Below, in pieces: positions 6,382-38,022 of a DNA stretch of 64,000 nucleotides. Numbering within the stretch: the stretch's first letter is position 1; each line of letters opens with the position of its first letter. This DNA comes from a virus. Its lineage: Duplodnaviria > Caudoviricetes. The notes beneath the pieces are model-generated. The model saw only the letters and a list, made by a program, of their open reading frames with translations. It was not told the DNA's origin and ran no database searches. The translations under genes and the position numbers were made by a program. The DNA lies in the IMG/VR virus record IMGVR_UViG_3300031760_000002, positions 96,001 to 160,000 of that record. One strand, given 5' to 3'.

Positions 6382-7176
6382 TTACTGTCCGAATTGCCGT
6401 CTGGCGACAGGCGCCGAATACGGCGCATCCCATGGTTTTGCAGGGGCGGGCTCCGGCTTCGGAGCCGCCTTGTAGTCGGCGACGGCCTTCCTCGACTCGC
6501 GCATCCTCTGGTTCCAGAGAACGGCATTTGGATCAAGCTCCTTGCCATCCTTCCTGTAGAACTCGCCGGTTTCTCCGTTGAACAGGTGGTTGTAGAACAT
6601 CGGAAGGCTTCTGCGCCCGTCCATCAGCTCCCTGTACATATCCCTCGGCGCGGCATTCGCAGCCGCCGGTGCCGACCGCCTCTTCAGGCCTCCGCCGTCG
6701 TAAAGGTAGAAGTCTCGTTCCTCGTTGGAAAGGCCGTTTCCATGTTCGTTGGCGGCAAGGGCCGTATCAATATGGCTGTTGAACTGGTCCAACCTCTCTC
6801 GAAGCTTAAGCCGCTCCTCCGGCGTGGCGGCTCCGGCCAGCTGGGCCTTCATCCAATTTTCGCCGGCGGACCTGAGCCCTTCAGCGTAACTGGCCCTCTC
6901 CTTACGTTCCCTCGCGTGGCTTCCGCTAAAAATGCTTCCGAGCGCCCTGGTCAGGAGCCATCCCTGCCTGTTGCCGTCTGCAAAACCGTCGTTAGGAAGA
7001 TACCTTGTAATGTCGCCAAGATATTTGTTGTTCTTCGCGAAGTCGAGGGCCATGTTGCGCTGGCCATTCCTGAAGTCGTCGTCTATGGCTATCTTGCACA
7101 GCACGGACGCGTCGTCGATCGACGCCCCAAGCTCCGCGCACTTCGAGAAAAACCCGTTTACATACCCCTGTGTCAT
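6382..7176 (-). CDS. GFxxKCAE-leader protein (putative capsid cargo)
   Basis: N-terminus MTQGYVNGFFSKCAELG...CKIA. Confidence 0.7.
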   Translation of the reverse strand: MTQGYVNGFFSKCAELGASIDDASVLCKIAIDDDFRNGQRNMALDFAKNNKYLGDITRYLPNDGFADGNRQGWLLTRALGSIFSGSHARERKERASYAEGLRSAGENWMKAQLAGAATPEERLKLRERLDQFNSHIDTALAANEHGNGLSNEERDFYLYDGGGLKRRSAPAAANAAPRDMYRELMDGRRSLPMFYNHLFNGETGEFYRKDGKELDPNAVLWNQRMRESRKAVADYKAAPKPEPAPAKPWDAPYSAPVARRQFGQ

Positions 7177-7185
7177 CGGTACCCC

Positions 7186-7554
7186 CTATTTAAAGAAAAG
7201 GTGTTCAACTATAGGCGCAACGACGACAGCAAGTATCGTAATGCCGCAAGTGATCCACACTGCGCTGTTCTTTTCCTTCGTCGCCATTGACGCCTTGATG
7301 CTCGCGATATCCGTCTTCATGTCGTCAAGTCCGCTTATCTTGTCTTTCACTTCCTTCAACTCCGTCCTGAAGTTTTCCATCTGGGCATGCATCGCGGCGA
7401 ACTGCGTTATCAACGGTGGCGTGCCATTGCCGTGCATGACGGTCTTCTCGAGCTTGTCGACCCTGCCTACGAGGCTATCCAGCACGGCCTTGTCCTTCGC
7501 CAGATAGCCACGGACCTCCTCCCGGAACGCCTCCTGTTTCTCCTCTTCAGACAT
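7186..7554 (-). CDS. coiled-coil protein with C-terminal TM helix (holin/XhlA-like architecture)
   Basis: start reassigned to MSEEEK; heptad-rich body, then AVWITCGITILAVVVAPIV. Confidence 0.5.
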   Translation of the reverse strand: MSEEEKQEAFREEVRGYLAKDKAVLDSLVGRVDKLEKTVMHGNGTPPLITQFAAMHAQMENFRTELKEVKDKISGLDDMKTDIASIKASMATKEKNSAVWITCGITILAVVVAPIVEHLFFK

Positions 7555-7555
7555 C

Positions 7556-10042: not shown

Positions 10043-10062
10043 TACAGTCCACCCTTAGATTA

Positions 10063-10380
10063 TTAAGCCTTGCCAACGGTTACGACCTGTCCCATCGGGT
10101 CGAGCCCCGCGTAGTCCCTGACCTTGTTGCTGAGATGGGCCGCTCCGAGGCCAGCTAGGGACCCGATACCGACCCCTGCGAGTGCTCCGGCTCCGCCCTT
10201 TGCGGTGCCACCGGCAACTCCACCGGCGTATGCGCCAAGAAGGGCGCCAAGGATCAGCTTGAGCTTCCTTCTCCTTGCGACGTAGTCTATGTCGGCCGAC
10301 TCCTGGGCCAGTTTAAGCATGCGCTTGCATTCGGCTATGCGAACCGCATGCGCGATCTTGGTAAGATTTTCCTGTTTCAT
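10063..10380 (-). CDS. small Gly-zipper membrane-type protein
   Basis: TKIA/LKLA motifs followed by two GxxxG hydrophobic helices. Confidence 0.6.
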   Translation of the reverse strand: MKQENLTKIAHAVRIAECKRMLKLAQESADIDYVARRRKLKLILGALLGAYAGGVAGGTAKGGAGALAGVGIGSLAGLGAAHLSNKVRDYAGLDPMGQVVTVGKA

Positions 10381-10916
10381 TATGCCATTCCCTTCAAAAC
10401 TGCGTCGAGCTTCGCATCTACCTCGGTAAGTTTGGCCGGGTCTATCGCGGCTGGCTGGGCAGGAGCCGACGGAGCCTGTGCCACGCCGCTAGGCTGCTGG
10501 ATGCCGAGAACGCTCTTGAACACCTCTGCAAACTGCTTGAACAGCTTGCTGAGCTGCGTAGGCGTTATCTTCATGTACGGCTCTCCGGACGGAGACACGT
10601 CGCCGCCGGCGGCAGGATCGTCCATCGGAGGTGGCGGCATTCCACCCATCGGGTCTCCTCCGGGAGGAGGCATTCCGCCCATGGCAGCCGGGTCTCCGGG
10701 AGGCATTCCACCCATGGCGGCTGGATCGCCAGGAGGCATTCCGCCCATTGCGGCCGGGTCTCCAGGGGGCATTCCACCCATGGCGGCGGGATCGCCTCCC
10801 GGGGGAGGACCGCCGGCACCGGGATCGCCGCCAGCCATCGACGGATCCATAGGAACGAACTGCGCCTGCTTCTTCAGAAGAAGCTGTAGCTGCTTGTATT
10901 TGTTGTAGTCGAACAT
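10380..10916 (-). CDS. Pro/Gly/Met-rich repeat protein
   Basis: KKQA at residue ~15, then (GDPAAMGGMPP)n. Confidence 0.65.
   Translation of the reverse strand: MFDYNKYKQLQLLLKKQAQFVPMDPSMAGGDPGAGGPPPGGDPAAMGGMPPGDPAAMGGMPPGDPAAMGGMPPGDPAAMGGMPPPGGDPMGGMPPPPMDDPAAGGDVSPSGEPYMKITPTQLSKLFKQFAEVFKSVLGIQQPSGVAQAPSAPAQPAAIDPAKLTEVDAKLDAVLKGMA
10636..10797 (-). repeat. 33-bp coding tandem repeat (GDPAAMGGMPP x4 plus a partial copy)
   Basis: visible in the translation, with synonymous divergence in the DNA. Confidence 0.85.
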
Positions 10917-10936
10917 GTGTTACCTCGTTATTGGAG

Positions 10937-11341
10937 CTACTTTGTCCTGTTGAAGCTGAACTCGGGCATCCAATTCCCGTAGCCATGAGCCTTGGCGCCA
11001 GTTGCCAGCATCGATCCCAGCAATCCGTATAATATCATCTTTCTCCTCTTTGCGGAAGACGAATCATCAGGGTTCTTCAAAAGCGTATTGTACAGAAGAG
11101 CGCCTCCGGCAGCTCCTATCAGACCCGGTACGGCACCGTTGTTCATCCAATCTGACTTGACGGACGAAACGGTCTTGTTGAACGCGCCCTTGGTCCTGTC
11201 CCATGCTTTAGAAGCGGCATTGGACACACCGTCAAAGAACCCGCCGGCTTCTGCAATTTTAGTATAGACGTATCTGGCGGCATCGTCCGTCATGCCGTAC
11301 TCGGCGCATTTTGCAATAAATCCCTGTTCGTGTCTCGTCAT
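10937..11341 (-). CDS. GFxxKCAE-leader protein with two hydrophobic helices
   Basis: MTRHEQGFIAKCAEYG...TKIA. Confidence 0.7.
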   Translation of the reverse strand: MTRHEQGFIAKCAEYGMTDDAARYVYTKIAEAGGFFDGVSNAASKAWDRTKGAFNKTVSSVKSDWMNNGAVPGLIGAAGGALLYNTLLKNPDDSSSAKRRKMILYGLLGSMLATGAKAHGYGNWMPEFSFNRTK

Positions 11342-13326: not shown

Positions 13327-13347
13327 TGCGAAACAAGAATGAAACTG

Positions 13348-13830
13348 CTACTTGCTTCTCTTCTTCTTGTCGTCTTCCTTGTCGCCTCTGTCTTTCTTCT
13401 TAGACGCGACAGCCGCAGTGCCGGCAGCAGCTCCGCCTATACCAAGAGCGGCAAGAAGCGACGCCTTAGCAGCCGGAGAAAGGGCGGACGTAGCCTGTCC
13501 TCCAGACAGAGCAGCAGCCGTACCTGCTCCTGCCGCTCCGGTAATCCCGAGCGTTGCCAGTATCCGGTCCCAGCGAAGCCCACCCTTTCCAAGCTTGGAC
13601 ACTTCGTTAAGACCGGAACCGCCAGACGACGCATAGTGCCCGCCCTTCCCGACTGCTGCCGGAACGGCCGTGACGCTATGGATCATCTTTCCCGGTTTGC
13701 GGTAAAATTTTCCAATGGCGCTCAGTACTCTTTCGAGTCCTGCCCTCTTCTGCATCTGCTCGAGTACGGCATTGCCGTCGACACCGTATTCGGCACACTT
13801 TTCGATGAACCCCTTTTCGTATCTGGTCAT
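13348..13830 (-). CDS. GFxxKCAE-leader protein with two hydrophobic helices
   Basis: MTRYEKGFIEKCAEYG...QKRA; AGGAG RBS. Confidence 0.7.
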   Translation of the reverse strand: MTRYEKGFIEKCAEYGVDGNAVLEQMQKRAGLERVLSAIGKFYRKPGKMIHSVTAVPAAVGKGGHYASSGGSGLNEVSKLGKGGLRWDRILATLGITGAAGAGTAAALSGGQATSALSPAAKASLLAALGIGGAAAGTAAVASKKKDRGDKEDDKKKRSK

Positions 13831-13871
13831 GTGTTTCTCCTTTGTCTGGCAATTCCAGTAGAGTTGCCGTT

Positions 13872-13900
13872 ATTAAAGCATTTTCCAAAAAATAATGCAA
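13872..13900 (-). promoter_or_regulatory. possible sigma70-like promoter
   Basis: TTGCAT-17 nt-TTTAAT with upstream TG, in an AT-rich intergenic gap. Confidence 0.35.
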
Positions 13901-13979
13901 CAGACTAAAAGCTCGCAGCCACCGCATTTTTAAGCGCAAATGCTAGCATGGTCTTGTTCATACGGCCCAGCACTTCGCC

Positions 13980-15839
13980 CTAGTAATGAAACTCCTCGTT
14001 CTTATGTCCGGGAGACCCCCACTGTCCGAGCGTTACGCCCTTGGCTACGGCAGGATACGGATTGATCCCCTTCGAATTGGACGTCGCGCCACGCTGTACG
14101 TCCTCGACAAGACGCTTTCCGATGTACGTCGTTCCAAGCCTTCCCATCCAGTCGTCGGTCTGGCCGGTCGTGTATACGACAGACTGCATCTCGGGGCGGA
14201 CGCCAACGGGCTTGTCGTTGTAGAGAACCGCCGGAACCTTGAACCTGTTCAGCTCGTCCGCGACCCGCTTGGTGATCCTGGTGCCTATCGTGTAGTGAAG
14301 GGCCGGCTGCTCCAGGTATTTCCCTATCGCCTTGCTGGGAGGGGCCTGCACCGAGTTCGTACGGGGCTTGTACCCCCACGCCCATCTGGCGTACGAGACG
14401 TTGTCCCCGGGCAGCATCTGGCCCTCGGCATCCTGGTCCTCCACGACGACGTTGTTTATCAGGGCTTTCGCAACGGCCTCCACGTTGCGCCTGTTCGTCT
14501 TGTACCCGGAATCCCTGTATGCCTTCGTGAACCTTTCCGTGAAATAACGGCGGCCTTCGCCGATCCCTTTCAGCCGGACCGCGTCGGCCGGGGAGACAAC
14601 GCCATCGGACAACTGGTCCCCGGCCTCGACCTCCTGGCCTTCCTTGACGATGAGGCCGTATCCGGCCGGAACGTAATGCCTCTGGTCGTTCACGTAGACG
14701 TACTCGCCTCCCTGCGGCGCCTTCTCGATCTTCTCCACGCGACCGTCTATCTCCGACACGGTTGCCCTGTCCTTGTACACCTCCGGAACCGTGGCCATCC
14801 TCTTCAGCATGTCGAACCCGGAATACCCTACGCCTTGCTGCTTCTTGCCAGAATGCTTCATGTTGAGGCCGCCTTGGGCGATCCTTTCCGCCAATGCAGA
14901 AGCGGAATTCAATCCAAGATTGTATCCGATCTCCGGGAACTTTCCGTTCTCGCGTATTCCGGCGCAATGGGCGCACACGCCGTTCTTGGCGTTGCATGTG
15001 GTAGGAGACCTTACGGATATCATGTCCTGCCCGGACGACTTGAGATCCGCCAGAACCGACTTTGTTATGACCGTACCGGCATCGTACCCGCCGGCCGGCA
15101 TGGCCAGAACCGCGCCTATGTTGTCGTTGTCGTCGGTCTTAACGGGAAGTCCGTTCGGAGTTCCGCAATCGTCCTCCGTGACCACCTGCTCTATGGCGGC
15201 CGAGTTGAACAGCTTGCCCAGCTCGCCGGCCCTTGCCGTCGCGAACTTGGTTGATATGATGGAGGCCCTCGCGCCGTAAAGGCTGGCCCAAAACTCCGCC
15301 GGAGACAGCCCGTCCGCATAACTGTGACGGATAAAAAGAGGTATGGTCCTGCCGGATGCGTCCTGGTAGACGCCCGGCGTATTGATCATGGCTGACAGCT
15401 GGTCCTTGTTGCCCCTCGCGTTCGACTTTACCTGGAGTGCGAAGCTGTTGTTCGCCTTCAGGGCCGCGTTGTACGCGTCCAGCTTCGTCTTGTCGTAGAC
15501 CTTCCGGTACACGTCGGACAGCACTTCCTTCTTCTCGTCGTCCGTCAGCGTCTTGTCGCCGTAGATCCTGTTTTCGGCGTCGTCCAGGTTTTTATATATT
15601 GTCGACCTGTCGAACGGCGGCGCAACGTCGGAAAGACGGATCGTCGTGCCTTCCTCGAACGCCGCCTTGTTGCCGGCCCGCATCAGCTTTGACGCTATTT
15701 CGCCGTACTTGTCCGGATCGTGAGCTATGATGTCCGTCAACAGCGCGTCCAGCTCGTCCGCACCAAGCGTACGATTGTAGTCCCGGTACCTCTCCGGGAG
15801 TATCTCGTTTATTATGAGCTGTCCTACCGTTGTAGCCAT
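13980..15839 (-). CDS. rpoC: multisubunit RNA polymerase, beta' C-terminal half (bridge helix, trigger loop, Zn site)
   Basis: TTVGQLIINEILP, SNARGN, GLSPAEFW...GAR...TARAGEL, EDDCGT, VRSPTTC...GVCAHCAG, AERIAQGGLNMKHSG. Confidence 0.92.
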   Translation of the reverse strand: MATTVGQLIINEILPERYRDYNRTLGADELDALLTDIIAHDPDKYGEIASKLMRAGNKAAFEEGTTIRLSDVAPPFDRSTIYKNLDDAENRIYGDKTLTDDEKKEVLSDVYRKVYDKTKLDAYNAALKANNSFALQVKSNARGNKDQLSAMINTPGVYQDASGRTIPLFIRHSYADGLSPAEFWASLYGARASIISTKFATARAGELGKLFNSAAIEQVVTEDDCGTPNGLPVKTDDNDNIGAVLAMPAGGYDAGTVITKSVLADLKSSGQDMISVRSPTTCNAKNGVCAHCAGIRENGKFPEIGYNLGLNSASALAERIAQGGLNMKHSGKKQQGVGYSGFDMLKRMATVPEVYKDRATVSEIDGRVEKIEKAPQGGEYVYVNDQRHYVPAGYGLIVKEGQEVEAGDQLSDGVVSPADAVRLKGIGEGRRYFTERFTKAYRDSGYKTNRRNVEAVAKALINNVVVEDQDAEGQMLPGDNVSYARWAWGYKPRTNSVQAPPSKAIGKYLEQPALHYTIGTRITKRVADELNRFKVPAVLYNDKPVGVRPEMQSVVYTTGQTDDWMGRLGTTYIGKRLVEDVQRGATSNSKGINPYPAVAKGVTLGQWGSPGHKNEEFHY

Positions 15840-18800
15840 TATTTTCGAAGTATCTCTATCGGGTCGTTTGGACCGATCTCACCCCTGGCATAGGCCGCCT
15901 TTGCCTCCGAGACCGTATTATACACCCGGACCGGCTTTTCCGTCATCGGCCTCGTCAAGGCATACAGGCCGAAAACCTGCTCCTTGCTCGGCGTGTGCCT
16001 TGGCGAACGAAGATCCGTCAACGACGTTAGGTTCTTGGACGGAAGCATCTTCTCGTACGCCTGCCTGACCGCCTTCTCCGACGACGGCACGTGCGCGTTC
16101 ATCTGGTCTCCGTCGAAATCCGCGGTGAACGACTGCGTGATAAGCGGGCATACCTTGATCGTGCTTCCGTCCGTGAGGAATGGCCTGAACGCCGTGAAGT
16201 TGAACTTGTGCCACGTCGGCGCACGGTCAAGGATGACCGGGCGCTTCTCCATCTCCTTGACCAGAATGCTCCTGGCCGTGGCATCCCTGTCCGCGATCAT
16301 CTTGGTCGATACGGACGCCGGATACCCGTTTCTTGACAGCTCGCGCATGATGTACGGCTTGTACATCGGCCATGCCATGTCCTCCGGTATGCCGCACTGG
16401 TCCATGTCCAGGTTCGGATCCGGCGTTATGACTCCGCGGGACACGCCTCCAACGGCCTTCGATATGACCTTGTTCTGGTACATGCCGAACTTTGGCCTGG
16501 ACCCTATCACCTGCCTTATCGCGCCTTTGACGCCTTTCGCGGCGTTCTCCGGCGTTATCGGCTGTCCAAGCCCGTACGCGGCCTTCACCGACTCGTAGAT
16601 GTTCAGCCTTTCGTCAGAAACGCCATCGTCGGACAGATCCTTCCTGAGCTCCCTGAAATGGTTCGCGTTCTCTATGATGTCCTTGTACAGCTTGTTCATG
16701 TCGGAAGTAAGGGCGACGTCGCCCATCTTCGACACGGGCCTGAACATCGGAGGTATGACCGGAACCTTCGATATCATCCAATCCTTGGGATGCAGCCCCT
16801 GGTTCTTCATCGCCGTCAAGTATCTATAAACCTTGACCGCATCGTCCCTCTTCTGGCCGCGGAACGTGGTTATGCCCCTCGACGCCTCCTCGATCCTCTT
16901 GTCGACGTCTATCTTGGACAGCGCGTCCTTCAAAGCCTGGCCGCCGGTCTTGCCGTCGAGCTTCTCACGACCGGACAGTATGTCCTCCATCCTTGACGTG
17001 GTCAGGCCGAGCACCCTCCTGACAGGCTCCTCCATTATCGGGTTCGGAACAGGTTCCGGAAGCTCTATCATGGACCATTGGTTTCCGGCCATACCGCCGG
17101 TCTTGCCAAGATCGAACAAGCCTCCCTTTACCGGCTCGAAGTCGGAATCAACCATGTCGGAGGACGATATGACACGTCCTCCGGCCATCTTCTCGACATC
17201 CTTGTCGGTCTGCGGCATTATCCGGGTTATCGACCCTTTTTCAGTGACATTTATGCCGCCAGCCCTCAACGTGTTCAGGAACTTGTTGTATATGAACGGC
17301 ACATCGGGCTCCGGCGTCGGAAGCCCCAGCTGCAGCGCCCTCCAATAATCGTCGTTCCTGGTGCCGCGTATGATCTGGGTGTCTTTTATCACCTCCGGCA
17401 CGTTGTGCGCAAGCATTCCCCACAAGTCCATGCCCGAGCTCTTCTTGGCGCCCTCAAAGCCTCCCTTCGCCGGCTGTTCGTCCTGCGTATAGGCGCCGTC
17501 TGCCCCTCGGGCCGACGCCTTCTTCTCGGACAGGTGGTGGAACGCATGCATGTAGATCCATCCGTCGCCGACGTTCTTGATTGTCTTCCCGGACACGGGA
17601 TCGAACACGTCTGCTGACTCCTTGACACCGGCTTTGTCCATCTGCGCCTTCGTCCACCTGTACCACCCTTCCGGCGGAGGAAGCTGGGGGATCCGTATCT
17701 GCTTTCCGGTGGCCTTCGCCACCTTTCCGAGGGAAATCTCCATGAGCTGGTTTGGCGCCGTCCTCGACAGGAATCCCATCGGGTTGACGAGGACGTCGTA
17801 CGGTTCGTTCGTGACGGCGTCCCTCGGCATCTTGTCCATCGGTATGATGGTGCCGACCACCCCCTTCAGACCGGAGAACGGAGACAGCTTGTCGCCCACC
17901 CTAACGGGGGGCTGCGCATGCACGTTCACCTTCGCTCCAGACGACGTCTTGACAGCGTCGACGACCGTGCCCTCGTAGTCATGCTCCCAGGTCTCCGACC
18001 TGTCGGTATAAGAATTGCGAAGCGCCTTGGACAGCTTTCCAAGCGCCTTGTCGGACGATGTGAGTACCTTTGGCCCGAGCGACAACACGATAGGATCGCC
18101 CCTGTGCAGCACGGTCCCCGGCTTGACGATTCCGTTTTCGTCCAAGGTTGCTATCTGGTCCTTGGTGAACTTTGACGGGAACGCTGATATGTACCTGTTC
18201 CTGCCGAGCTGCACTCCGTTCCTGGCCTCGTGGTCGAAACTGTACAGCCTGTCCGTGGCGAGCTTCTTCGCCGCGTCCTCGCTGATCGTCCACGCGTCCT
18301 CGTAGCTCATGCCGTTCCACGGAAGTATGGCGGCCCTGAGGTTTTGGCCCATATTCAGTGCCCCGGTCTTCGCGTCCGTGTAGTTGGAATGCGCTATCAT
18401 GTCGCCGGGCTTCACGCTTTGCCCCTCCTTGACGGACGGGAAATAGCTTATTGCGGACAGCCTGTTGAACGGTACGTTCTTGGTAAGCTCGACCTTGACG
18501 GTCTTGCCGTCGTCGCCCTTGATCGTAACCGTATCGTCGTCAACCTTCGTGACAACTCCGGAAACGTCGGACTTTAGCGTACCGATTTTCCTGCCGTAGT
18601 ATTCGGACCACGTCGTCTTTCCGTCAGGCATCAGCGAGTCGACCAACGGAACCTCTCCGTTCTTCTGCGGAAGGTACTGCGACCAGAACTTCGACCCGTA
18701 GAACTGCCTCGTGGACTGGACTCCGGTCGGCATGATGTTCATGTTCGTGTTCGAGGTTATCATATGGCCGTACGACGGAACGGTGTACCGCACCTCGCTT

Positions 18801-20209
18801 CGCTTCACCCTCTGCGGTATGCCGTCCTTCATCGCAATGACGTACGGCTTTGTCATGTCCTGCCCCGGAAAGGCCACAAGCCCGTCCGACGCAGTCGCTA
18901 TGTCGACGTATGTAAGCTTCCCGGTTCTGTTGTCTATGAACTCGCCGTACAGCTTGTTGTCCTTGCCAAGGAACGTGTTGTAAGCGGCACGGACGTCTAC
19001 ACCCACTTTTTCCGACTCGGGACCCGAGTTCATGTCGACGAACCCCAAGTAGTCCCCCTGGACGTCGCGCGCCTCCATCGTGACCGCCTCCGGAGACCCT
19101 ATGCCTCCCAGTCCGAACTTGGATATCCTGGACATCTGCTCCAACGTGGAAAGCGGGTTCGCCTCCTCGCCGGGCATGGCGAGCCCAGATCCGTTTATGA
19201 TCGTATCGACCCACGGGTTAAGGGCGTTCCTCTGGATGGATTTAAGATTTCCGTTCCTCCTGGCCTTGTACAGAAGCGTATTGGCCAGGCGTCCGGCGTT
19301 CTTCTCGATGCGTTCCTTGAAATAGTCCTCGACGCCGTAGAACTTGGAAAACCTGGGGCTGTCCCTGTTGTCGGCCTTCTCATCGCCCCTGGAGACGTTC
19401 AGAAGCTTCTGCGAGGCCCTGAGGAGGAGCTCCGGCGTAACATGGTCGACGCCACGGAGGCCCATGGTCCTCTCGACGACCTCCGGATCCACCTCGTATC
19501 CGGCGATGGCGTCGCGAACGAACTGGATCTTGTCATCCTGCGTGGCGGCCGGATTCGACTTGTACCCGGCCATCCTGGAATAAAGCTTGTTCCACGCCTG
19601 AGGGTCCGCCTTTGCGGAGTTTGCCGCGGCAACGTCCGCGCCCCAGTATTTGACAATGCTCTTGTCGTCTACCCCAAGCCCGCGCAAAACCTGGTACAGC
19701 GGTATCTGCCCCTGTCCGGTCTGCAGCGACATGACGCCGGTCTCCGGGTTCAGCCCGAAATGGAACGCGTGCCCTGTGCCCGGCCTGATGTTGAACTGCG
19801 CCTCGTATTCGCCGTTGGACTTCCGCCTTGCATAGACGCCAGGACGAAGCCTTGACTGCGAAATGACCGTGTACTCGGACCCGTTGTTTATAATCGTTCC
19901 GCGGTCGGTCCAGTACGGAACCTGCATGACGGAATCCTTGCGCTGGTCCAGCACCTTCCCGGTCTTCTTGTCGGTGAGCCTCCAGGTGCCGACCAGGTTT
20001 GTCCTTAGATTCCTGTTCCTCAGGATGGCGTCCTTCTGCTGCTTCAGCGTGAACTCCTGCGGACCGTCGTATGCGATGTCCACAAGCTCCAGCCTGTAGT
20101 TGTCGTCCTCGACTGGAAAACGCTTCTGCATCGCGGAAAGAACATTGTCGTAAATGTTCCTTCTGGCCGATTTTGCATCGTCGAACGCCCTGAGACCGTC
20201 TGGAATCAT
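15839..20209 (-). CDS. rpoB: multisubunit RNA polymerase, beta fused to the N-terminal catalytic half of beta'
   Basis: beta motifs GTIINNGSEY..ISQ..RPG, NPL...RISKFGLGG, GQNL..AILPWNG.SYEDA, GDKL...GLKGVV, NPMG..SR; beta' motifs VPVIPP.FRP, DRAPTWH, TADFDGDQM. Confidence 0.93.
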   Translation of the reverse strand: MIPDGLRAFDDAKSARRNIYDNVLSAMQKRFPVEDDNYRLELVDIAYDGPQEFTLKQQKDAILRNRNLRTNLVGTWRLTDKKTGKVLDQRKDSVMQVPYWTDRGTIINNGSEYTVISQSRLRPGVYARRKSNGEYEAQFNIRPGTGHAFHFGLNPETGVMSLQTGQGQIPLYQVLRGLGVDDKSIVKYWGADVAAANSAKADPQAWNKLYSRMAGYKSNPAATQDDKIQFVRDAIAGYEVDPEVVERTMGLRGVDHVTPELLLRASQKLLNVSRGDEKADNRDSPRFSKFYGVEDYFKERIEKNAGRLANTLLYKARRNGNLKSIQRNALNPWVDTIINGSGLAMPGEEANPLSTLEQMSRISKFGLGGIGSPEAVTMEARDVQGDYLGFVDMNSGPESEKVGVDVRAAYNTFLGKDNKLYGEFIDNRTGKLTYVDIATASDGLVAFPGQDMTKPYVIAMKDGIPQRVKRSEVRYTVPSYGHMITSNTNMNIMPTGVQSTRQFYGSKFWSQYLPQKNGEVPLVDSLMPDGKTTWSEYYGRKIGTLKSDVSGVVTKVDDDTVTIKGDDGKTVKVELTKNVPFNRLSAISYFPSVKEGQSVKPGDMIAHSNYTDAKTGALNMGQNLRAAILPWNGMSYEDAWTISEDAAKKLATDRLYSFDHEARNGVQLGRNRYISAFPSKFTKDQIATLDENGIVKPGTVLHRGDPIVLSLGPKVLTSSDKALGKLSKALRNSYTDRSETWEHDYEGTVVDAVKTSSGAKVNVHAQPPVRVGDKLSPFSGLKGVVGTIIPMDKMPRDAVTNEPYDVLVNPMGFLSRTAPNQLMEISLGKVAKATGKQIRIPQLPPPEGWYRWTKAQMDKAGVKESADVFDPVSGKTIKNVGDGWIYMHAFHHLSEKKASARGADGAYTQDEQPAKGGFEGAKKSSGMDLWGMLAHNVPEVIKDTQIIRGTRNDDYWRALQLGLPTPEPDVPFIYNKFLNTLRAGGINVTEKGSITRIMPQTDKDVEKMAGGRVISSSDMVDSDFEPVKGGLFDLGKTGGMAGNQWSMIELPEPVPNPIMEEPVRRVLGLTTSRMEDILSGREKLDGKTGGQALKDALSKIDVDKRIEEASRGITTFRGQKRDDAVKVYRYLTAMKNQGLHPKDWMISKVPVIPPMFRPVSKMGDVALTSDMNKLYKDIIENANHFRELRKDLSDDGVSDERLNIYESVKAAYGLGQPITPENAAKGVKGAIRQVIGSRPKFGMYQNKVISKAVGGVSRGVITPDPNLDMDQCGIPEDMAWPMYKPYIMRELSRNGYPASVSTKMIADRDATARSILVKEMEKRPVILDRAPTWHKFNFTAFRPFLTDGSTIKVCPLITQSFTADFDGDQMNAHVPSSEKAVRQAYEKMLPSKNLTSLTDLRSPRHTPSKEQVFGLYALTRPMTEKPVRVYNTVSEAKAAYARGEIGPNDPIEILRK

Positions 20210-20937
20210 TACATGTTCCTCTGGTAGGATCCCGTCTGGTAGTTCCAGCCATACCTAGGCATGGCCTCCATATACTGTCTTTTCTCGGCGTAGCTTCCTG
20301 GCGCGGCCTTTGCATCCGGGTTGAACTGCTGCTGCTGTCTATAATCGTACAGCTGGCCTCGGAGATAATTGCCGCGTTCGGCCGGAGAAAGCCTGTCCCA
20401 GTCGCTCCTGCCCATGTACGCCTCGAGATTGTTGAAATTGGCATCGTTGTACGCTGCCCGCATTCCCGCCCTGGTAAGGACCGTCTTGCCGACCGGAAGT
20501 CCCGTTGCGGCTTGAAGACCGAACCTGCCGGCCCCGTATACCGCCCTTCCGAACCGTGTCGCGTTCAATGCATTTTTGGCGGCGATCGCATTTTTTCCGA
20601 CCCTGGTCGCCGCCAACGCGCCCTTGGTTCCGGCCAGCGCACTCCTTATCGCCGTTCCGCCTATTCCGAAAGACAGCAGATCGGCTATGCCGCTTCCTAT
20701 GCCAAGGCCAAGATTGCCGAGGCCGGACCATATATGCCCGTTTGCAAGAGACTTTATGCCATCGCCTATAGACAACGCAGAACCGAGTATCGGGGTTGCG
20801 TACATTGCGGTCTGGCCGAGTGCGCCTCCAAGACTCTTTGCTGCCGGAAGAACGGTATCGGCCTCCTTTCGGAGACCGGCCGTCTTCACGATGTAAGAGT
20901 CTATCTTTCTTTCAAGCGCGCATGTATTCACCGTCAA
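20209..20937 (-). CDS. hypothetical virion protein (paralog A)
   Basis: VKTAG/RKEAD at the N-terminus, amphipathic Gly-rich helices. Confidence 0.6.
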   Translation of the reverse strand: MTVNTCALERKIDSYIVKTAGLRKEADTVLPAAKSLGGALGQTAMYATPILGSALSIGDGIKSLANGHIWSGLGNLGLGIGSGIADLLSFGIGGTAIRSALAGTKGALAATRVGKNAIAAKNALNATRFGRAVYGAGRFGLQAATGLPVGKTVLTRAGMRAAYNDANFNNLEAYMGRSDWDRLSPAERGNYLRGQLYDYRQQQQFNPDAKAAPGSYAEKRQYMEAMPRYGWNYQTGSYQRNM

Positions 20938-23562: not shown

Positions 23563-23917
23563 ACGAATTAGGCACCTTGGTGGTCGTCGACTTCTCGTTC
23601 TTCCTGAAATAGAACCACTCCATGTACCTCTTCCATGTATCGCCCATTACCTGAAGGTCGTTCCTGCATATGACACACTGCGACGCCTGCACCTTCTTGA
23701 AAAGCTCCTGCATCAGCTTCATGTACTCGAGCCTGTCAGACGACGAGGACATGTCGAATATGGCCACCTTGTAGTCCGTGACCTCGATGGGATACTTGTC
23801 GTACTTGGCCATTTCGACGCCGCGTTCTATCTCGTTCATCGGCGGAAACATGCCCGCAACGCCGCCGGACGACATATCGTACCACGGCGGCATGGCGTTC
23901 TGGATCGGATTCGTCAT
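23537..23917 (-). CDS. hypothetical protein
   Basis: 126 aa, coupled to its neighbours. Confidence 0.6.
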   Translation of the reverse strand: MTNPIQNAMPPWYDMSSGGVAGMFPPMNEIERGVEMAKYDKYPIEVTDYKVAIFDMSSSSDRLEYMKLMQELFKKVQASQCVICRNDLQVMGDTWKRYMEWFYFRKNEKSTTTKVPNSYGKDGDNA

Positions 23918-24231
23918 CTTACTACCCCCATGGCCCTTGAACTCTCGGCGGCAACGTCGTTGAAATGGTCAAGCTGCGCCTTCAGCTTCCTGGTCTTCTC
24001 CGAATCCTCCTTCAACGACGAGCTCAACGCGTACCATACGGCGCCTATCGGAGCCCCTATGAAAACGGCCGTACGAAGCGCCGTTCCCAAAAGGGACAGC
24101 GGGCCGGAATCGGCGGCCTCCTTCTGGAAAGTCGTCGGCGTAAGCCCCTCGGCGGCCAGCTTCTTGATGCCTCCGAGCCTCATTGCCTCCAGCCGTTCGC
24201 TTGGAGTAAGGAATTCGTTGATTCTGTACAT
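23914..24231 (-). CDS. small membrane-type protein with degenerate leader
   Basis: start reassigned to MYRINEF; GGIKKLAAEG...QKEA, then a hydrophobic helix. Confidence 0.6.
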   Translation of the reverse strand: MYRINEFLTPSERLEAMRLGGIKKLAAEGLTPTTFQKEAADSGPLSLLGTALRTAVFIGAPIGAVWYALSSSLKEDSEKTRKLKAQLDHFNDVAAESSRAMGVVR

Positions 24232-25083: not shown

Positions 25084-25578
25084 CTAAATCCCGTACGAAG
25101 ACGCGCCGTACGATCCGGTCATTCCCCTGAAGAAGCTCGCAAGGTCTTCGACGCCGGACCCGGACTGGTCCTTCGATTCCGACGGAAGCACGTCGGGGTA
25201 TTCAACGCGCAGGCCATTGATCAGCTCCACCCGCTGGCTCAGCATCTCCTTTACCTTGGATACGGGGACTGACCCCTTGGATGCCAGGAACCCGGCGGCC
25301 TCCGCCATGGACTGGAACTCCGACTCCGAGCCGTCGGTATCGTACACGACGACCTTGGTGCCCGACGCAAGCTTGTCCAGCCCGTCCATCATGCGGCGGA
25401 AATCGAACGAAGCCTTCTTCATGTCGGAATGCTTCGTCCTGGCGAAATGCTCCGCATCCTCGTCCGATATATGCTCGGCGACCTGCCGTATCTTCTTCGG
25501 GGCGTGCTTGAGCTTTCCGCGCTTGTACGCGGTTACCATTCCGAAAAGGCGCTGCTGCGATGGTGACTTGGCCGGCAT
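25084..25578 (-). CDS. DUF3008-like N-terminal domain protein
   Basis: MPAKSPSQQRLFG...AYKRG...A..IS..DAEHFARTKH. Confidence 0.65.
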   Translation of the reverse strand: MPAKSPSQQRLFGMVTAYKRGKLKHAPKKIRQVAEHISDEDAEHFARTKHSDMKKASFDFRRMMDGLDKLASGTKVVVYDTDGSESEFQSMAEAAGFLASKGSVPVSKVKEMLSQRVELINGLRVEYPDVLPSESKDQSGSGVEDLASFFRGMTGSYGASSYGI

Positions 25579-25614
25579 TTTGTACCTCTGTTCATGCGCA
25601 TTATACACAATACG

Positions 25615-27154: not shown

Positions 27155-27212
27155 CCTAGTGCGTAAACCTTCCCGGCATGAGCGCCGCGACGCTCTGGAA
27201 CTGGGATGTTGT

Positions 27213-28147: not shown

Positions 28148-28180
28148 TTTTGTCTCCTTTTGTTGTGTTGTTAGTTAGAG

Positions 28181-30072: not shown

Positions 30073-30317
30073 TCGTCGCTGCCCTCCTCTCGGCCTGGGC
30101 GCATTGGCGGCTCTGGCCTAGCCTTCGGGTCCTTCATTCCGATGGACTCCCAGAACGCGGCACGCTCCTCGGCGGTGAACTCGCGCTCATCGTAGTTGTC
30201 GATAGAGTCGCCGACGCCGAGGTCGACGCCGTCGCCCAGGACAACGTTGTCCGACTTGCGGACGAACATCCTGCCGTCGTCGGCCAGGTAAAGATTCGTT
30301 CCCTCTTCGTGCTTCAT
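30069..30317 (-). CDS. small fibre-associated protein
   Basis: 82 aa; LYLADDGRMF...V.LG..DS.DNYDE. Confidence 0.55.
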   Translation of the reverse strand: MKHEEGTNLYLADDGRMFVRKSDNVVLGDGVDLGVGDSIDNYDEREFTAEERAAFWESIGMKDPKARPEPPMRPGREEGSDE

Positions 30318-30326
30318 CGCGTCTCC

Positions 30327-33278: not shown

Positions 33279-33288
33279 CTATGGCCTC

Positions 33289-33741
33289 CTACTTGTCAAG
33301 GAACAGGAGATTGGACCTCTTAGATCCGCTCTTGTTCATCACGAAGAACAGGACCTTCTTGGCCCTGTCGAACCTGGCGCCGTCCCATCCCTTGTAGCCG
33401 TCGTGTATGTTGTCGAACTCGCGGCGCACCCTGTCGACGGAGCCCCATTCCCAGAATCCGCCGTACCACTCGCCGGACTCCTCGAAGAAGATGCAGTTCC
33501 TGGCGTAGGCCTTGTCGTGGGTGTAGCCCCACATCCCGCCTTGCCCGTTGAACGTTATTGCCTTGTTTGACACCGATCCGGAAACGAGCTTGTACCCGCC
33601 GTCCGACGTGTCCTCTTTGGCGGCCGACCCGTTGCATCCGCCGTACTTCCATTGCAGCCTGGAATAGTCAAACGGCTCCTCCTGTTCGATGTCCAGCCAG
33701 CGAAGTATCTTCTTCCAAAGCTTCTTAAGGAACTTCTCCAT
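33289..33741 (-). CDS. hypothetical aromatic-rich protein
   Basis: start reassigned to MEKFLKK, AAGGAGG RBS. Confidence 0.6.
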   Translation of the reverse strand: MEKFLKKLWKKILRWLDIEQEEPFDYSRLQWKYGGCNGSAAKEDTSDGGYKLVSGSVSNKAITFNGQGGMWGYTHDKAYARNCIFFEESGEWYGGFWEWGSVDRVRREFDNIHDGYKGWDGARFDRAKKVLFFVMNKSGSKRSNLLFLDK

Positions 33742-33807
33742 GTATGCCTCCTTGCCGCACGGGGCCGCGGCATGCGCCGCCGTACTGCCGTGCTGCACGA
33801 CAGTATA

Positions 33808-34119
33808 CTATTTGGCGGGCCTCTTTGCAACGGTCGGTATGCGTATGCTCTGGCCGGGTCGTATCGCCAGTGCCGACGGCATCCCGTTCTCCGCCATGAC
33901 GTCGTCCATGGACACGTTGTACTTCCTGGCTATCCCGGAGAGGACCTCCCCGGGCCTTACCGTGTGCCTCCTGGTCGTGAGCCAGTCCTTGAAGATCTCG
34001 GACGCCCTTTGCAGGTTCGGATCACCCGACTCGGCCAGCTTCATAAGTCCAGAAGCCAGTTGTTCGGGAATGCCGAACGACTGGCATCTGGACATGAATC
34101 CGGACTCGTACGGAGTCAT
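33808..34119 (-). CDS. leader + LysM peptidoglycan-binding domain protein
   Basis: MTPYESGFMSRCQSFG...MKLA; HTVRPGEVLSGIARKYNVS...NG...IRPGQSIRIP. Confidence 0.85.
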   Translation of the reverse strand: MTPYESGFMSRCQSFGIPEQLASGLMKLAESGDPNLQRASEIFKDWLTTRRHTVRPGEVLSGIARKYNVSMDDVMAENGMPSALAIRPGQSIRIPTVAKRPAK

Positions 34120-34120
34120 G

Positions 34121-34588
34121 CTAGTAGGCTGTCCCCGCCGGAGGCGTTATCCTGGCCGGGGCTTCCGTTTTCGTTCCAACCGGAAGCGCAGGTTTTCCGT
34201 TTCCGGCGAGCTGGCTGGCCTCAGGCGCACCGGAAAGCTTTCCTCCGGCGTACCCCCCGACGCCACCCACAATACGTCCGAGCCCGCCGCCTAGAAGTGC
34301 GCCTCCAATAGCGCCAACCGGCCCAAGCACGGCCCCGCCAAGCGCCCCCGTGGCCGCTCCGATCCCGGTACCCCACTTGCGGCCCGTGCTCTTGTAGCTC
34401 TCCATCGACCTGTTTGGATCTTTCCTGTTAAACAGGTGGGAAATAAGGCCATATGCGCCTATGCTGCCAAGTCCCCCAAGCAGAAATCGGCCTAAGCCGG
34501 CCTGTTTCCTCATCAGCTGGACGGCCGTGTCTTCATCGACGCCGTACTCGGCGCACTTCGTGAGAAATCCATGTTCGTATGGTGTCAT
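34121..34588 (-). CDS. GFxxKCAE-leader protein with glycine zipper
   Basis: MTPYEHGFLTKCAEYG...RKQA; long GxxxG run. Confidence 0.75.
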   Translation of the reverse strand: MTPYEHGFLTKCAEYGVDEDTAVQLMRKQAGLGRFLLGGLGSIGAYGLISHLFNRKDPNRSMESYKSTGRKWGTGIGAATGALGGAVLGPVGAIGGALLGGGLGRIVGGVGGYAGGKLSGAPEASQLAGNGKPALPVGTKTEAPARITPPAGTAY

Positions 34589-34600
34589 TTTGTCTCCTTT

Positions 34601-35422
34601 TTACAGTAAAGCAAGAATCGATTTTATGTTTTTTGTCCTTGCTTCGTTAGACTTCTGTTTTTTCTGAATACTGTTTCCATATCCGTTCGCAATTGACCCG
34701 GTAAGGATCGTGGGCAGCGAAAAATACGAAACGGCATTGGACTGCACCTGGTTTCTATACGTGTCCAGCGCAGCCTCCCTGATTGGATTTCCCTTGCCCA
34801 ACCCGGCGTTGTCCCATGCCCTGCTCTCCATCCTCACCAAATGGGAATCGTCTGGATGTGCTATGTACCTGAGCACCTGCTTCAGGTCCCTTGGTTTCGA
34901 CAGCAACGACTTGATTACGACGTTCCGCCCATGCCTGGCCACGTCCTCGGCGTGTCCGAGCTCGTGCATGAGCACATAGGGGTTCAGCTCCCCCTTGTTG
35001 CCGAGCGAAACGTACGACATGGCCGGATTGTAATGCGGTCCGTTGAAAACGGGGGACATGATGACCTTGAGCCTGTCGGCCAGCGACGAATTGGACAATA
35101 TATGTTTTCTTATGATATTGCCGTCCTGGTACACCGGAACGGGCCCGCCGAGCCCGTAATTTCCTCCGATCCCCTTGTAGACGGAATCCGCCCATTCGTA
35201 TTTCGGAAGTGACTTTCCCGTCTCCGCCATGTGCCTTGCAACGGCCGCGTCGACCTCGGCCCTGCTTCCGAGCATCCCGGCGCTGATGAGCTTCCTCAAC
35301 CTACGTGCGCGGACGGCTCCACGCAGCGAAAATATAATCGGAGCGGAAACACCGGCCGCCACCAGTGACCGGCCGATGCTCTTCGCCACATTCGAATTGG
35401 TCCTATCTCCTGCCATTGGCAT
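34601..35422 (-). CDS. putative zinc metallopeptidase
   Basis: VLMHELGHA (HExxH) with downstream E..AW; hydrophobic termini. Confidence 0.65.
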   Translation of the reverse strand: MPMAGDRTNSNVAKSIGRSLVAAGVSAPIIFSLRGAVRARRLRKLISAGMLGSRAEVDAAVARHMAETGKSLPKYEWADSVYKGIGGNYGLGGPVPVYQDGNIIRKHILSNSSLADRLKVIMSPVFNGPHYNPAMSYVSLGNKGELNPYVLMHELGHAEDVARHGRNVVIKSLLSKPRDLKQVLRYIAHPDDSHLVRMESRAWDNAGLGKGNPIREAALDTYRNQVQSNAVSYFSLPTILTGSIANGYGNSIQKKQKSNEARTKNIKSILALL

Positions 35423-35427
35423 TTCTT

Positions 35428-35769
35428 CTATACCGATCCGGCAATGCGTTCCACTTCCGGAGCCATACTCTTCGTACGTCTCAGAAAATGGTCTCCCAGG
35501 ACGCCTACGCCGAATCCGGCCCCTATGAACGACGGAACCCTAAGCATCCCGGCCACGTTCGACAGCATGTTCTTTACGCCGGGCTTGGTCGCCTCGCCGC
35601 CAAGCCTGGTGACGAACGGCATTATCCTCTGCCCGAACGGCGAACCGACAAACTTGGTGAAAGCCTGCAGGAACCCCGCCTCCTTGGCGAGGCCGGACGG
35701 GTCTACGCCGGCTTCCGCGCATTTGCACAGGAAGCCGGCGATGTATGCGTCGCACGGATCGGCCTTCAT
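35428..35769 (-). CDS. GFxxKCAE-leader protein
   Basis: AYIAGFLCKCAEAGVD...AKEA. Confidence 0.7.
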   Translation of the reverse strand: MKADPCDAYIAGFLCKCAEAGVDPSGLAKEAGFLQAFTKFVGSPFGQRIMPFVTRLGGEATKPGVKNMLSNVAGMLRVPSFIGAGFGVGVLGDHFLRRTKSMAPEVERIAGSV

Positions 35770-35771
35770 GG

Positions 35772-36389
35772 CTATCTCTGCCCTATGGCCACCGTGTCAA
35801 GGGAAGGATCCTTGCCCTCCCACATCCTGAGCCTTGCGTTGGCGTCGGCGGTAGCGCCTCCGATAAGCGCGCCTCCGCCGAGACCATAGCCAAGGCCCTT
35901 CAACGCCGCTCCTCGCATCATCTTGCCGCCGTATCCGGCAAGACGCGCCATATGCTTTCCGTTCCCCGCATGGCGCATCATCATGGATGCGAGCCTTGCT
36001 CCCTTGCCTCTCGAGAAGAGCGCAAGGGCCACCGCGGCAGGAACGCCCAGCAGCGCGCCCTTCAATGCGCCGCTTCCTGCGCCCTTGAGATCGTTCACGA
36101 TCAGGCGCCGCCTCGTGTAGTCGGTATTGTTGTCGAAGTACCGCTGGTTCCTGTCCATGTTGTTCGTATTTCCGGAAGCGGCCATGGACGCCGGAAGGTC
36201 GGGCATCTTTCCGCCGACCACGTCCGTGTTGAACGCACGGCTCCCAAGGTATCCGAGGCCAAGCCCTCCGGCCAGCATGGCCGGGATCTTCCAGTTGAGC
36301 GCCTTCTTCTCCAGAAGCTTGCTTCCATCTACGCCGTGCTCGGCGCACTTGGTGAGAAATCCGTTGCTGTACCTGTCCTGAACGGTCAT
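35772..36389 (-). CDS. GFxxKCAE-leader protein with three hydrophobic helices
   Basis: start reassigned to MTVQDRYSNGFLTKCAEHG...EKKA; GGAGG RBS. Confidence 0.72.
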   Translation of the reverse strand: MTVQDRYSNGFLTKCAEHGVDGSKLLEKKALNWKIPAMLAGGLGLGYLGSRAFNTDVVGGKMPDLPASMAASGNTNNMDRNQRYFDNNTDYTRRRLIVNDLKGAGSGALKGALLGVPAAVALALFSRGKGARLASMMMRHAGNGKHMARLAGYGGKMMRGAALKGLGYGLGGGALIGGATADANARLRMWEGKDPSLDTVAIGQR

Positions 36390-36406
36390 TTTGTGTACCT
36401 CCGTTG

Positions 36407-37114
36407 TTATTGTATGTAACGTCTTCCGCCCGGCGTGGCGAACGGGTTGCCGGAAGGCTGCTGAGGCGCCGGCGGCTGAAACTGCTGTCCTCGCATCTGA
36501 TCTCCGGCCGACGTTCCACGGATAGGCTGCTGCGGCTGCTGAACCTGGTTGGTGTTCACTACGCCACTTTGTCCACGAACGGGCTGCACGTTCGGATTCC
36601 AGTTCGGGGCCGTATACTTGGCAGCCTCGGTCGTCTGCCACTGGGTGTTTCCACGGGCGAACCTCTGGTTCGGATCCACGTCCTGGATGCCCTTGACGGT
36701 CTCGACCCTGCCGCCGGTATTGAGCCTGTTCACGCCAAGCGTACGGGCGTTCGCGCGATTCTTCTCCTCCTGCATCCTCTGCATGACTTCCTGCGCGTTC
36801 TCGTCGATGCTTCGGCCATACTCCTCCTCCTGCCAGTCCTTGGAGTGGAAGTTCCTGTTGAACCACCTGCCGAGAGCGGTACCGGCCTTTCCGGAATCCT
36901 TCCTGGCCATGAGCTGCTCGAACCTGGCCCTGTCGCCTTCGCTCATGTTCTGGGTATACTGGCCCATGATGTCCTTCTGCGTACCGGTGATGGACTCGTT
37001 CCTATGGCCGTCCGAATCCCAGAAATACGCCCTCTTCATTAGAAAATGCGCAACTTCCTCCGGAATGCCGGATTCGGCGCACTTGGTGAGAAATCCCTGT
37101 TCGTATGGTGTCAT
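36407..37114 (-). CDS. GFxxKCAE-leader protein, Gln/Pro-rich tail
   Basis: MTPYEQGFLTKCAESG...MKRA; AAGGAG RBS. Confidence 0.75.
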   Translation of the reverse strand: MTPYEQGFLTKCAESGIPEEVAHFLMKRAYFWDSDGHRNESITGTQKDIMGQYTQNMSEGDRARFEQLMARKDSGKAGTALGRWFNRNFHSKDWQEEEYGRSIDENAQEVMQRMQEEKNRANARTLGVNRLNTGGRVETVKGIQDVDPNQRFARGNTQWQTTEAAKYTAPNWNPNVQPVRGQSGVVNTNQVQQPQQPIRGTSAGDQMRGQQFQPPAPQQPSGNPFATPGGRRYIQ

Positions 37115-37129
37115 TTTTGTCTCCTTTTT

Positions 37130-37357
37130 CTACGAAATCCCAAATCTAGCCTTCGCCTCTTCCCAATCGCTGTCCGATTTGTTCGCGAAACACCAGGTAT
37201 CGTCCACTATCCTGGACATGAACGCCACCGGTTCTCCCCTGTTGCTGCGAATGACCACGGTCCTTGCCTTGTTCGTGTCAAGCAACGGCCTGTCGAACAC
37301 GTTGTCCGACAGGACCGTAACATTGCCACGGGCGTAGTCTGAACTTTGCTCCGACAT
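37130..37357 (-). CDS. small hypothetical protein
   Basis: 75 aa, coupled to the upstream stop. Confidence 0.55.
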   Translation of the reverse strand: MSEQSSDYARGNVTVLSDNVFDRPLLDTNKARTVVIRSNRGEPVAFMSRIVDDTWCFANKSDSDWEEAKARFGIS

Positions 37358-38022
37358 TAATTAACACCCGGTGTCCTCAGGCTCTGCTGCAGCTTCTTGC
37401 GCCTGAGCGCCTCGACCTTATTGACCGCAGCCTCGAGATTAGGATCATTTCCTGGCTGCCCGGGCATTACCAGGCCAGACCTATGAATTACGGTTCGCTG
37501 GGCGGTCCTCGGTGCAGGGCTTGTAACGGTCCTTGGAGCCGGGCTTGTAACGGTCCTTGGAGCCGGGCTTGTAACGGTTCTTGGTGCAGGGCTTGTAACG
37601 GTCCTGGGCGCAGCGGGCCTTGGCTGTTGAGCCGGCCTCGCCGGATATGGCCTAGGCTGCGGAGCTGGCCTTGGTTGCGGAGCCGGTCTAGCCGGGGCTG
37701 GCCTCGGCTGTGGAGCCGGTCTAGCCGGGGCTGGCCTCGGCTGTGGAGCCGGTCTAGCCGGGGCTGGCCTCGGCTGTGGAGCCGGTTGTGGCGTAGGTTG
37801 AGAGCCACTTGCAGAACCGGTCGGAACGCCTGGAGCCGGCAGATCGTCGCCAGGATGCCAGTTCGGATCCATCAGCCTTGCCTTGTTCTGCTGCCATTGG
37901 TCATGGGTCATTGACTGGCCGCCTATCTGCAGGTCGGACATCTTCAAAAGACCGAAAGCCACTTCCGGGTGAATCCCGAATGCGGCGCACTTGGTTAGAA
38001 ATCCCTGTTCGTATGGTGTCAT
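37357..38022 (-). CDS. GFxxKCA-leader protein with Pro-rich repeats
   Basis: MTPYEQGFLTKCAAFG...LKMS; (PAPQPRPAPAR)x3, (PRTVTSPA)x4. Confidence 0.72.
   Translation of the reverse strand: MTPYEQGFLTKCAAFGIHPEVAFGLLKMSDLQIGGQSMTHDQWQQNKARLMDPNWHPGDDLPAPGVPTGSASGSQPTPQPAPQPRPAPARPAPQPRPAPARPAPQPRPAPARPAPQPRPAPQPRPYPARPAQQPRPAAPRTVTSPAPRTVTSPAPRTVTSPAPRTVTSPAPRTAQRTVIHRSGLVMPGQPGNDPNLEAAVNKVEALRRKKLQQSLRTPGVN
37505..37790 (-). repeat. two coding tandem repeats (33 bp x3, 24 bp x4)
   Basis: near-identical DNA units ggagccggtctagccggggctggcctcggctgt and gggcttgtaacggtccttggagcc. Confidence 0.85.

Follow-up and report, generated by a model that had tools for sequence, protein, structure and literature searches.

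A short helical-hairpin tag shared by unrelated basic proteins of an uncultured phage clade, a candidate head-loading signal

Nine genes in a 64,000-base stretch of a cattle-gut phage genome open with the same peptide of 26-30 residues, hereafter the tag, and continue into tails that are mutually unrelated. The stretch, which we call the window, comprises bases 96001-160000 of one 176,839-base IMG/VR virus contig (IMGVR_UViG_3300031760_000002). An initial annotation made from the letters of the window had reported the motif at the start of these nine minus-strand genes, and translation together with a profile of the tag recovered every one of them, each beginning at the upper coordinate given in Table 1. 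The tagged genes lie within a head-morphogenesis block, beside the gene for a prohead protease of the T4 gp21 fold, and the tails, like the internal proteins of T4, are basic. We infer that the tag may be a head-loading signal working like the capsid targeting sequence (CTS) of T4, and we put the chances of this at about even. The pattern shares the logic of the T4 CTS and of the P1 protein DarB, and for this reason head loading is rated the likeliest function. The hairpin that the tag is predicted to form would dock the proteins bearing it onto the core of the assembling prohead or onto the capsid interior, where they would be enclosed with the DNA and from which they could leave with it at infection, and the gp21-fold protease probably trims the tag, at K-x-A-E or at K-x-A.

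Sequence, predicted fold and cargo of the tag

Searched with the profile, 1.84 billion representative proteins yielded 581 clusters at E<=1e-3; copy-number and position counts given below refer to the best 150 of these 581 clusters, and aligned-profile and tail counts to 145 members. The tag has the consensus MTRYEQGFLTKCAEYGVD, followed by a second helix that ends in L-L-K-x-A. In the family profile the first block is nearly invariant (M-T-x-Y-E-x-G-F-x-x-K-C-A-E-x-G) and the second is weaker ([VIL]-[DP]...A..[LM][LM]-K-x-A). Lys11 and Cys12 are invariant, the Glu that lies inside the hairpin (K-C-A-E), the sole near-invariant Glu of the tag, is retained by 136/145 members, and the spacing of Met and Thr from the motif is constant in 130-132 of the 145. 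Conservation peaks in residues 1-16 and information content drops to background right after K-x-A, as had been noticed at the outset, when similarity was said to end there and the remainders to be unrelated; indeed, the best BLASTP pair among the window tails has an E value of 0.08.

When AlphaFold2 was given a 119-sequence alignment of the tag, it placed a helix at residues 3-14, a turn at G16, a second helix at 19-26 and disorder from 27 onward (pLDDT 85.6). As modelled, the tag is a small autonomous helix-turn-helix hairpin whose end coincides with K-x-A. The hairpin is amphipathic and charged, with no hydrophobic run and with Lys immediately before Cys, and the features of signal peptides that were looked for (a Sec/Tat hydrophobic core of at least 10 residues, a lipobox) were not found in it. 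No family in Pfam (E<=1) or PHROGs (E<=0.1) covers tag residues 1-30. A fold search of the PDB with a 36-residue model of the tag gave matches only at E values of at least 4.9, and in the ESM Atlas the feature search came back empty while the structure search gave generic helical hairpins only.

A six-frame search of the complete genome with the leader profile found the nine window copies and a tenth N-terminal copy elsewhere, with E values of 4e-20 to 4e-11. This tenth copy, at genome 48442-49377, takes the place of a degenerate one that had been proposed at window position 24231 (open reading frame, ORF, 23914-24231), where the likeness to the motif was seen by eye only and the profile gives an E value of 14. 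An internal partial tag, K-C-A-E-Y-G-I (E 6e-4), is present in a 425-amino-acid (aa) DUF6582 protein (L001:5249-6526, minus strand, equivalent to genome 52248-53525). The same protein is 58-60% identical in relatives, and in one of them (G004) a tagged gene directly follows it. Between paralogous leaders DNA identity averages 53%, and about half of the identical residues are encoded by different codons; the low mean identity argues that selection acts on the peptide. Three leader starts (34540-34602, 37066-37129 and 37972-38022) are approximately 90% identical in DNA over their first ~50 bases, and two of the three also share the upstream ribosome-binding site AAGGAGACAAA, a resemblance that points to tagged genes having been copied recently or having undergone gene conversion with one another.

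The tails vary widely and turn over fast. Across the family, 142 tails fall into 112 unrelated groups, about half of the tails contain glycine-zipper or transmembrane (TM)-like segments, and the only tail domains that Pfam recognises in the 150 representatives are glycine zippers, one LysM, one collagen repeat and one DUF3008. The window itself holds one LysM tail, several glycine-zipper or TM-like tails and two that are Pro/Gln-rich. What they share is charge: all nine window tails have an isoelectric point (pI) above 9, compared with 31% of the other small ORFs in the genome (Fisher p 8e-5), as do 124/145 tails of the family, and the mature T4 proteins IPII and IPIII have a pI of 9.6. The cargo is mainly a large set of small, basic, low-complexity proteins with fast turnover. 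The tail of leader gene 7 is partially conserved in one relative, G002, and that of leader gene 1 (37357-38022, minus strand) carries tandem P-A-P-Q-P-R / A-P-R-T-V-T-S-P peptide repeats. Small proteins of similar character also occur in the block: three untagged ones have glycine-zipper or TM-like segments (window 2736-3545, 10063-10380 and 20209-20937, minus strand), and another (10380-10916, minus strand) contains the tandem repeat G-G-M-P-P-G-D-P-A-A-M four times.

Distribution of the tag among uncultured phages

The contig is linear, with a completeness of 100% by CheckV and a GC content of 57%; nearly all window genes are on the minus strand, and near-identical DNA is present in cattle-gut metagenomes from two studies, no RNA run being listed among its carriers. 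By its large RNA polymerase subunit, the closest cultured relatives of the window phage are Salmonella phage Arash (30% identity over 99% coverage) and the Vibrio phages D69, D181 and D148. A scan of IMG/VR yielded five further contigs of 82-190 kb that are syntenic with the window phage and carry 4-12 tag copies each, and the sources of the wider family are all metagenomes. The bearers of the tag constitute an uncultured clade of contractile-tailed phages with genomes of 140-206 kb, of which the window phage is the cattle-gut member. With 581 clusters and five tagged relatives, the early suggestion of one tag on unrelated proteins extends to an entire clade.

Within this clade the tagged genes keep their places while losing their contents. 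All five relatives have tagged genes in the same slots, namely behind the portal gene, next to the polymerase genes, and behind both the 662-aa and the 828-aa genes, and when tagged genes are compared from genome to genome the tag is the sole conserved part. Core genes are 33-50% identical between related tagged genomes. A distant family member with two copies directly precedes a homologue of RNA polymerase beta. The tag is single in 136/150 representatives and stands at the very N-terminus (residues 1-29) in about 131/150.

The head-gene block and its prohead protease

Descending along the minus strand, the block runs from the portal gene through the Peptidase_C14 gene, six tagged genes, a series of tail-fibre-like and unknown genes, the two polymerase genes and a tagged gene, and continues with the 662-aa gene, a tagged gene, the 828-aa gene, a tagged gene, homologues of Arash gp220 and gp222, and the gene for a scaffold-like protein (Table 1). 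This arrangement counts in favour of the initial reading. The 828-aa protein is a homologue of the Arash structural protein gp218. The protease, scaffold-like and capsid genes follow one another in that order; the capsid protein, encoded just outside the window at genome 94077-95069, is 27% identical to that of Arash (E 4e-30), and a tail sheath gene likewise lies just outside. Homology of the portal protein covers roughly residues 417-881, behind an N-terminal extension of ~400 residues that is conserved in G002 and G004; with 908 aa the protein is longer than the product of the Arash portal gene, of about 580 aa. In mass spectrometry of Arash virions, the homologous RNA polymerase subunits ranked with the most abundant proteins (PMC10585845), which indicates that heads of this lineage carry protein cargo.

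Table 1. Tagged genes and neighbouring genes of the head block (window coordinates unless stated; leader genes are numbered from higher to lower coordinates)
Feature	Position	Strand	Description
Portal protein	39174..41900	-	908 aa; PHROG portal profiles; 29% identity to Arash portal
Peptidase_C14 (caspase-like) protein	38019..38942	-	Pfam 9.7e-19; between portal gene and tagged array
Leader gene 1	37357..38022	-	221 aa; tag is first ~30 codons; Pro/Gln-rich tail, pI 12
Leader gene 2	36407..37114	-	235 aa; tail Gln/Asn-rich, disordered-looking
Leader gene 3	35772..36389	-	205 aa; tail glycine-zipper / TM-like
Leader gene 4	35428..35769	-	113 aa; 7 extra residues precede tag; hydrophobic tail
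Leader gene 5	34121..34588	-	155 aa; glycine-zipper-dense tail; first sequence of the folded alignment
Leader gene 6	33808..34119	-	103 aa; tag and LysM domain (PF01476, 6.1e-13)
Two-gene multisubunit RNA polymerase	13980..20209	-	1456 aa and 619 aa; homologues of Arash Gp206 and Gp216
Leader gene 7	13348..13830	-	160 aa; slot directly after RNA polymerase beta'C gene
Leader gene 8	10937..11341	-	134 aa; start overlaps stop of 662-aa gene
Leader gene 9	6382..7176	-	264 aa; slot after 828-aa structural gene
Prohead protease	1325..2734	-	469 aa; Arash gp222 homologue; N-terminal domain of T4 gp21 / assemblin fold
Scaffold-like protein	71..1321	-	416 aa, acidic, Ala/Glu-rich; between protease and capsid genes
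Tenth tagged gene	genome 48442-49377, outside window		N-terminal copy

The protease was recognised by fold comparison alone, a PDB sequence search with its profile having produced no match. The model of its N-terminal domain (pLDDT 84.5) superposes by VIA on T4 gp21 (5JBL) with a Z score of 12.1 and a root-mean-square deviation (rmsd) of 3.1 A over 147 of 165 residues; the next-best VIA match is the protease of a herpesvirus (VZV), at Z 6.8, and the three best Foldseek matches are all 5JBL. Homologues of the protease number at least 497, and its invariant residues are H54, S146 and H174. The catalytic domain is followed directly, at residues 225-233 (window 2035-2061, minus strand), by the motif S-V-K-x-A-E-x-E-G, which is almost invariant in 34 homologues of the protease. 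It resembles the tag core K-C-A-E-x-G and, judged from its sequence and position, may be a site of self-processing.

Two positions in the tag are candidates for cleavage. Characterised phage proteases of the gp21 type cleave after Glu, and a cut after K-x-A-E (residues 11-14) would fit that specificity; the recurrence of the motif at the domain boundary of the protease makes this site a lead, not proof. Herpesvirus members of the assemblin protease fold have Ala specificity, which would suit a cut where the hairpin ends, behind K-x-A; this second site is the one proposed in the initial annotation, and it is a guess. The extended motif K-x-A-E-x(1,2)-G-[VILM] occurs ten times in the six frames of the genome, each time in a coding frame: in seven leaders, in the DUF6582 protein, at the N-terminus of a 128-aa protein and at the boundary of the catalytic domain of the protease. 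Plain K-x-A-E turns up 35 times against 14.7 in shuffled proteins, a twofold excess that we do not count as evidence because helical sequence rich in Ala, Lys and Glu can yield it without any code. A complex prediction of a leader with the full protease scored 0.01 and counts neither for nor against their binding.

Several neighbours deserve mention alongside the protease. The Peptidase_C14 protein, a possible alternative to the protease as processing enzyme, contains the His motif YSGHG, the Cys motif DCCHSG and a hydrophobic segment at its N-terminus. Its gene is present in 4/5 relatives, and in the window phage the stop of that gene overlaps the start of leader gene 1. Inside the tagged array lies a gene for an untagged 273-aa protein (window 34601-35422, minus strand) with a zinc-protease-like HExxH motif (HELGH), for which no significant family (Peptidase_M91, E 0.11) and no homologue in the related loci were found. 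The 416-aa acidic protein is likely the scaffolding protein, assigned by position and composition alone. An idea that the tag copies hairpin repeats of this protein, suggested by eye, was dropped when the alignment of the tag profile with it gave an hhalign probability of 0.1; the repeats of Arash gp223 likewise have a visual resemblance to the tag only. Between the scaffold-like and capsid genes lies the gene for the 128-aa helical protein (genome 95682-96068, minus strand, reaching window base 68), the N-terminus of which has the tag-like stretch Y-D-T-L-A-E-K-V-A-E-Y-I-G-V. The tag profile does not recognise this protein or a 140-aa head protein that also has K-x-A-E-Y.

Head loading, its precedents and its rivals

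The internal proteins of T4 are diverse and basic and have only a 10-residue N-terminal CTS in common, which attaches to the prohead core and is cut off by gp21. Like the CTS of IPI, IPII, IPIII and Alt, the tag is a short conserved N-terminal peptide on unrelated small basic proteins; in both systems a gp21-fold prohead protease is encoded and the genes turn over fast while the tag persists, and by eye tag residues 1-14 recall the CTS in having Tyr4, an acidic/amide pair, Phe with an aliphatic residue, and Ala-Glu. The tag differs in being three times longer, in its hairpin fold and invariant Gly-Phe, Lys-Cys and Gly, in lacking the [IL]-x-E end, and in the internal and C-terminal copies of its family; moreover, ten or more tagged genes per genome lie amid core head and polymerase genes and not in separate ip loci as in T4. 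In P1, the N-terminal 30 residues of DarB target a reporter to the capsid, and a folded structure may be needed. The length and position of that stretch, which in P1 suffices for capsid localisation of a reporter, are paralleled by the tag, but the Dar proteins have no common consensus, whereas in the window phage the consensus is the defining feature. The phiKZ-like phage SPN3US, in which the propeptides of ejection proteins are cut at A-x-E by the gp21-like protease gp245, is alike in its many internal or ejected head proteins (RNA polymerase subunits included), its gp21-like protease and its N-terminal propeptides proposed for prohead targeting; however, these propeptides measure ~110-130 residues and have no common sequence, in contrast to the one short module that serves all tagged proteins here. 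Scaffolding proteins of the P22 type have a C-terminal helix-turn-helix coat-binding domain of ~30 residues with conserved basic residues, which docks inside the procapsid. The tag resembles it in its predicted helical hairpin, its length of about 30 residues and its conserved basic residues, though the P22 domain is C-terminal and confined to a single scaffolding protein, and the fold search with the tag found no match.

Several observations weigh against head loading by a disposable signal. The tag profile gives no alignment to the N-termini of T4 IPII or IPIII in hmmsearch, which bears out the initial view that the tag is independent of the CTS, homology between the two being undetectable. 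Profile searches found the tag absent from the cultured Arash and Vibrio phage D69 genomes, and a tblastn search of 50,697 phage records with a near-consensus leader gave no match at E<=1. The tag has no terminal [ILV/A]-x-E motif of the sort that characterised phage proteases of the gp21 type use, as conservation ends in L-L-K-x-A with no conserved Glu there, and the Glu of K-C-A-E is missing in 2/9 window leaders. Two or three copies are present in 12/150 representatives, some at the extreme C-terminus (P0001, P0068), and 3/150 have internal copies only, two of them after a DUF3008 domain. The leader had initially been expected at the N-terminus alone, with internal hits named as a mark against it; some 90% of members conform, and about 8% have internal or C-terminal copies. 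These copies argue for a hairpin that acts as a binding domain by itself and is more than a propeptide, and tags in multiple or internal copies are better explained by a binding domain that stays in place than by a propeptide that is discarded. Finally, no recognisable enzyme was found among the tails of the 150 representatives, which are mostly of low complexity, and the delivery of diverse effectors that the initial annotation envisaged is therefore without support. Beside these copies we note a DUF3008-like protein in the window (25084-25608, minus strand; E 0.0015), the N-terminus of which is similar to one fused to 1-2 tags in the family members P0004 and P0063.

Some of the same observations speak for a hairpin that is never cut and anchors its proteins permanently to the portal or its N-terminal extension, to the inner or outer capsid surface, or to the tail, in the way of a decoration-protein anchor or of the helix-turn-helix coat-binding end of a scaffold. 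The tandem, internal and C-terminal copies and the lack of a canonical Glu cleavage motif at the tag end suit such an adaptor, as do the six tagged genes downstream of the portal gene and the confidently predicted fold with its boundary at K-x-A, where some proteins end outright. The start of the tag is nevertheless fixed: Met-Thr keeps its distance in about 90% of members, as if a free N-terminus mattered in the manner of propeptides. Hydrophobic glycine-zipper tails with a pI of ~10 would be odd for surface decoration, and the family to which the encoded gp21-fold protease belongs typically trims head-internal proteins. A permanent anchor has, in our judgement, a minority chance, though not a negligible one. 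We consider it improbable that the tag is instead the substrate of another enzyme, either the Peptidase_C14 protein or one that modifies Cys, with products that act in the host envelope. Metacaspase-type enzymes cleave after Lys or Arg, which would suit L-L-K-x-A, and the Peptidase_C14 gene, besides overlapping leader gene 1, is the immediate upstream neighbour of a leader gene in G003; Lys11 and Cys12 are invariant, many tails look membrane-active from their sequences, and a LysM tail would bind peptidoglycan. However, G005 has 8 tags but lacks that gene, in G002 and G004 the gene is distant from the tags, no radical-SAM match (PF04055) was obtained in the complete genome while the control genomes all matched, and the leader genes hold slots among head and RNA polymerase genes throughout the clade.

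A purely genetic account, in which a ribosome-binding site and the first 30 codons spread by recombination as a cassette, the tails diverging or being replaced and the shared start serving expression or folding only, strikes us as very improbable. The near-identity of leaders 38022, 37114 and 34588 over ~50 bases, and the upstream sequence common to two of them, is what such a cassette would leave behind. Against it stand the low mean identity of the leaders and their differing codons, the persistence of the peptide across all the clusters and across genomes whose core genes have diverged far, and the internal and C-terminal copies, where expression signals would be irrelevant. Head loading can also be framed more boldly: the tag would be a portable, position-independent head-address domain across the uncultured clade, loading hypervariable injected proteins; K-C-A-E would be cut by the gp21-fold protease, multi-copy members would be polyproteins cut in the head, and the protease would free its own C-terminal domain at the same motif, or, alternatively or additionally, cargo would be tethered to the inside of the head, reversibly, through the invariant Cys. 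This elaborate version we hold to be unlikely.

The concept of a peptide that loads proteins into heads is already known from T4, P1 and the giant phages. Novel features are how long the tag is and how it folds, the invariant residues Gly-Phe, Lys-Cys and Gly, its internal and C-terminal use, its lack of a canonical terminal cleavage motif, and its spread in a large uncultured clade. Even as an anchor that is retained or as the substrate of an enzyme, the tag would still be a clean case of one module reused on very diverse partners. The 10-residue signal of T4 has already been used for protein delivery, and if the tag is a head-loading signal, it would represent a second and structurally different capsid address, a folded hairpin usable at either end of a protein. 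The occurrence of K-x-A-E both in the tags and at the domain boundary of the protease makes the cleavage code cheaply testable in vitro. Most broadly, a head-loading tag would define which proteins a sizeable clade of uncultured large phages packages and injects, a set of hundreds of protein families without known function.

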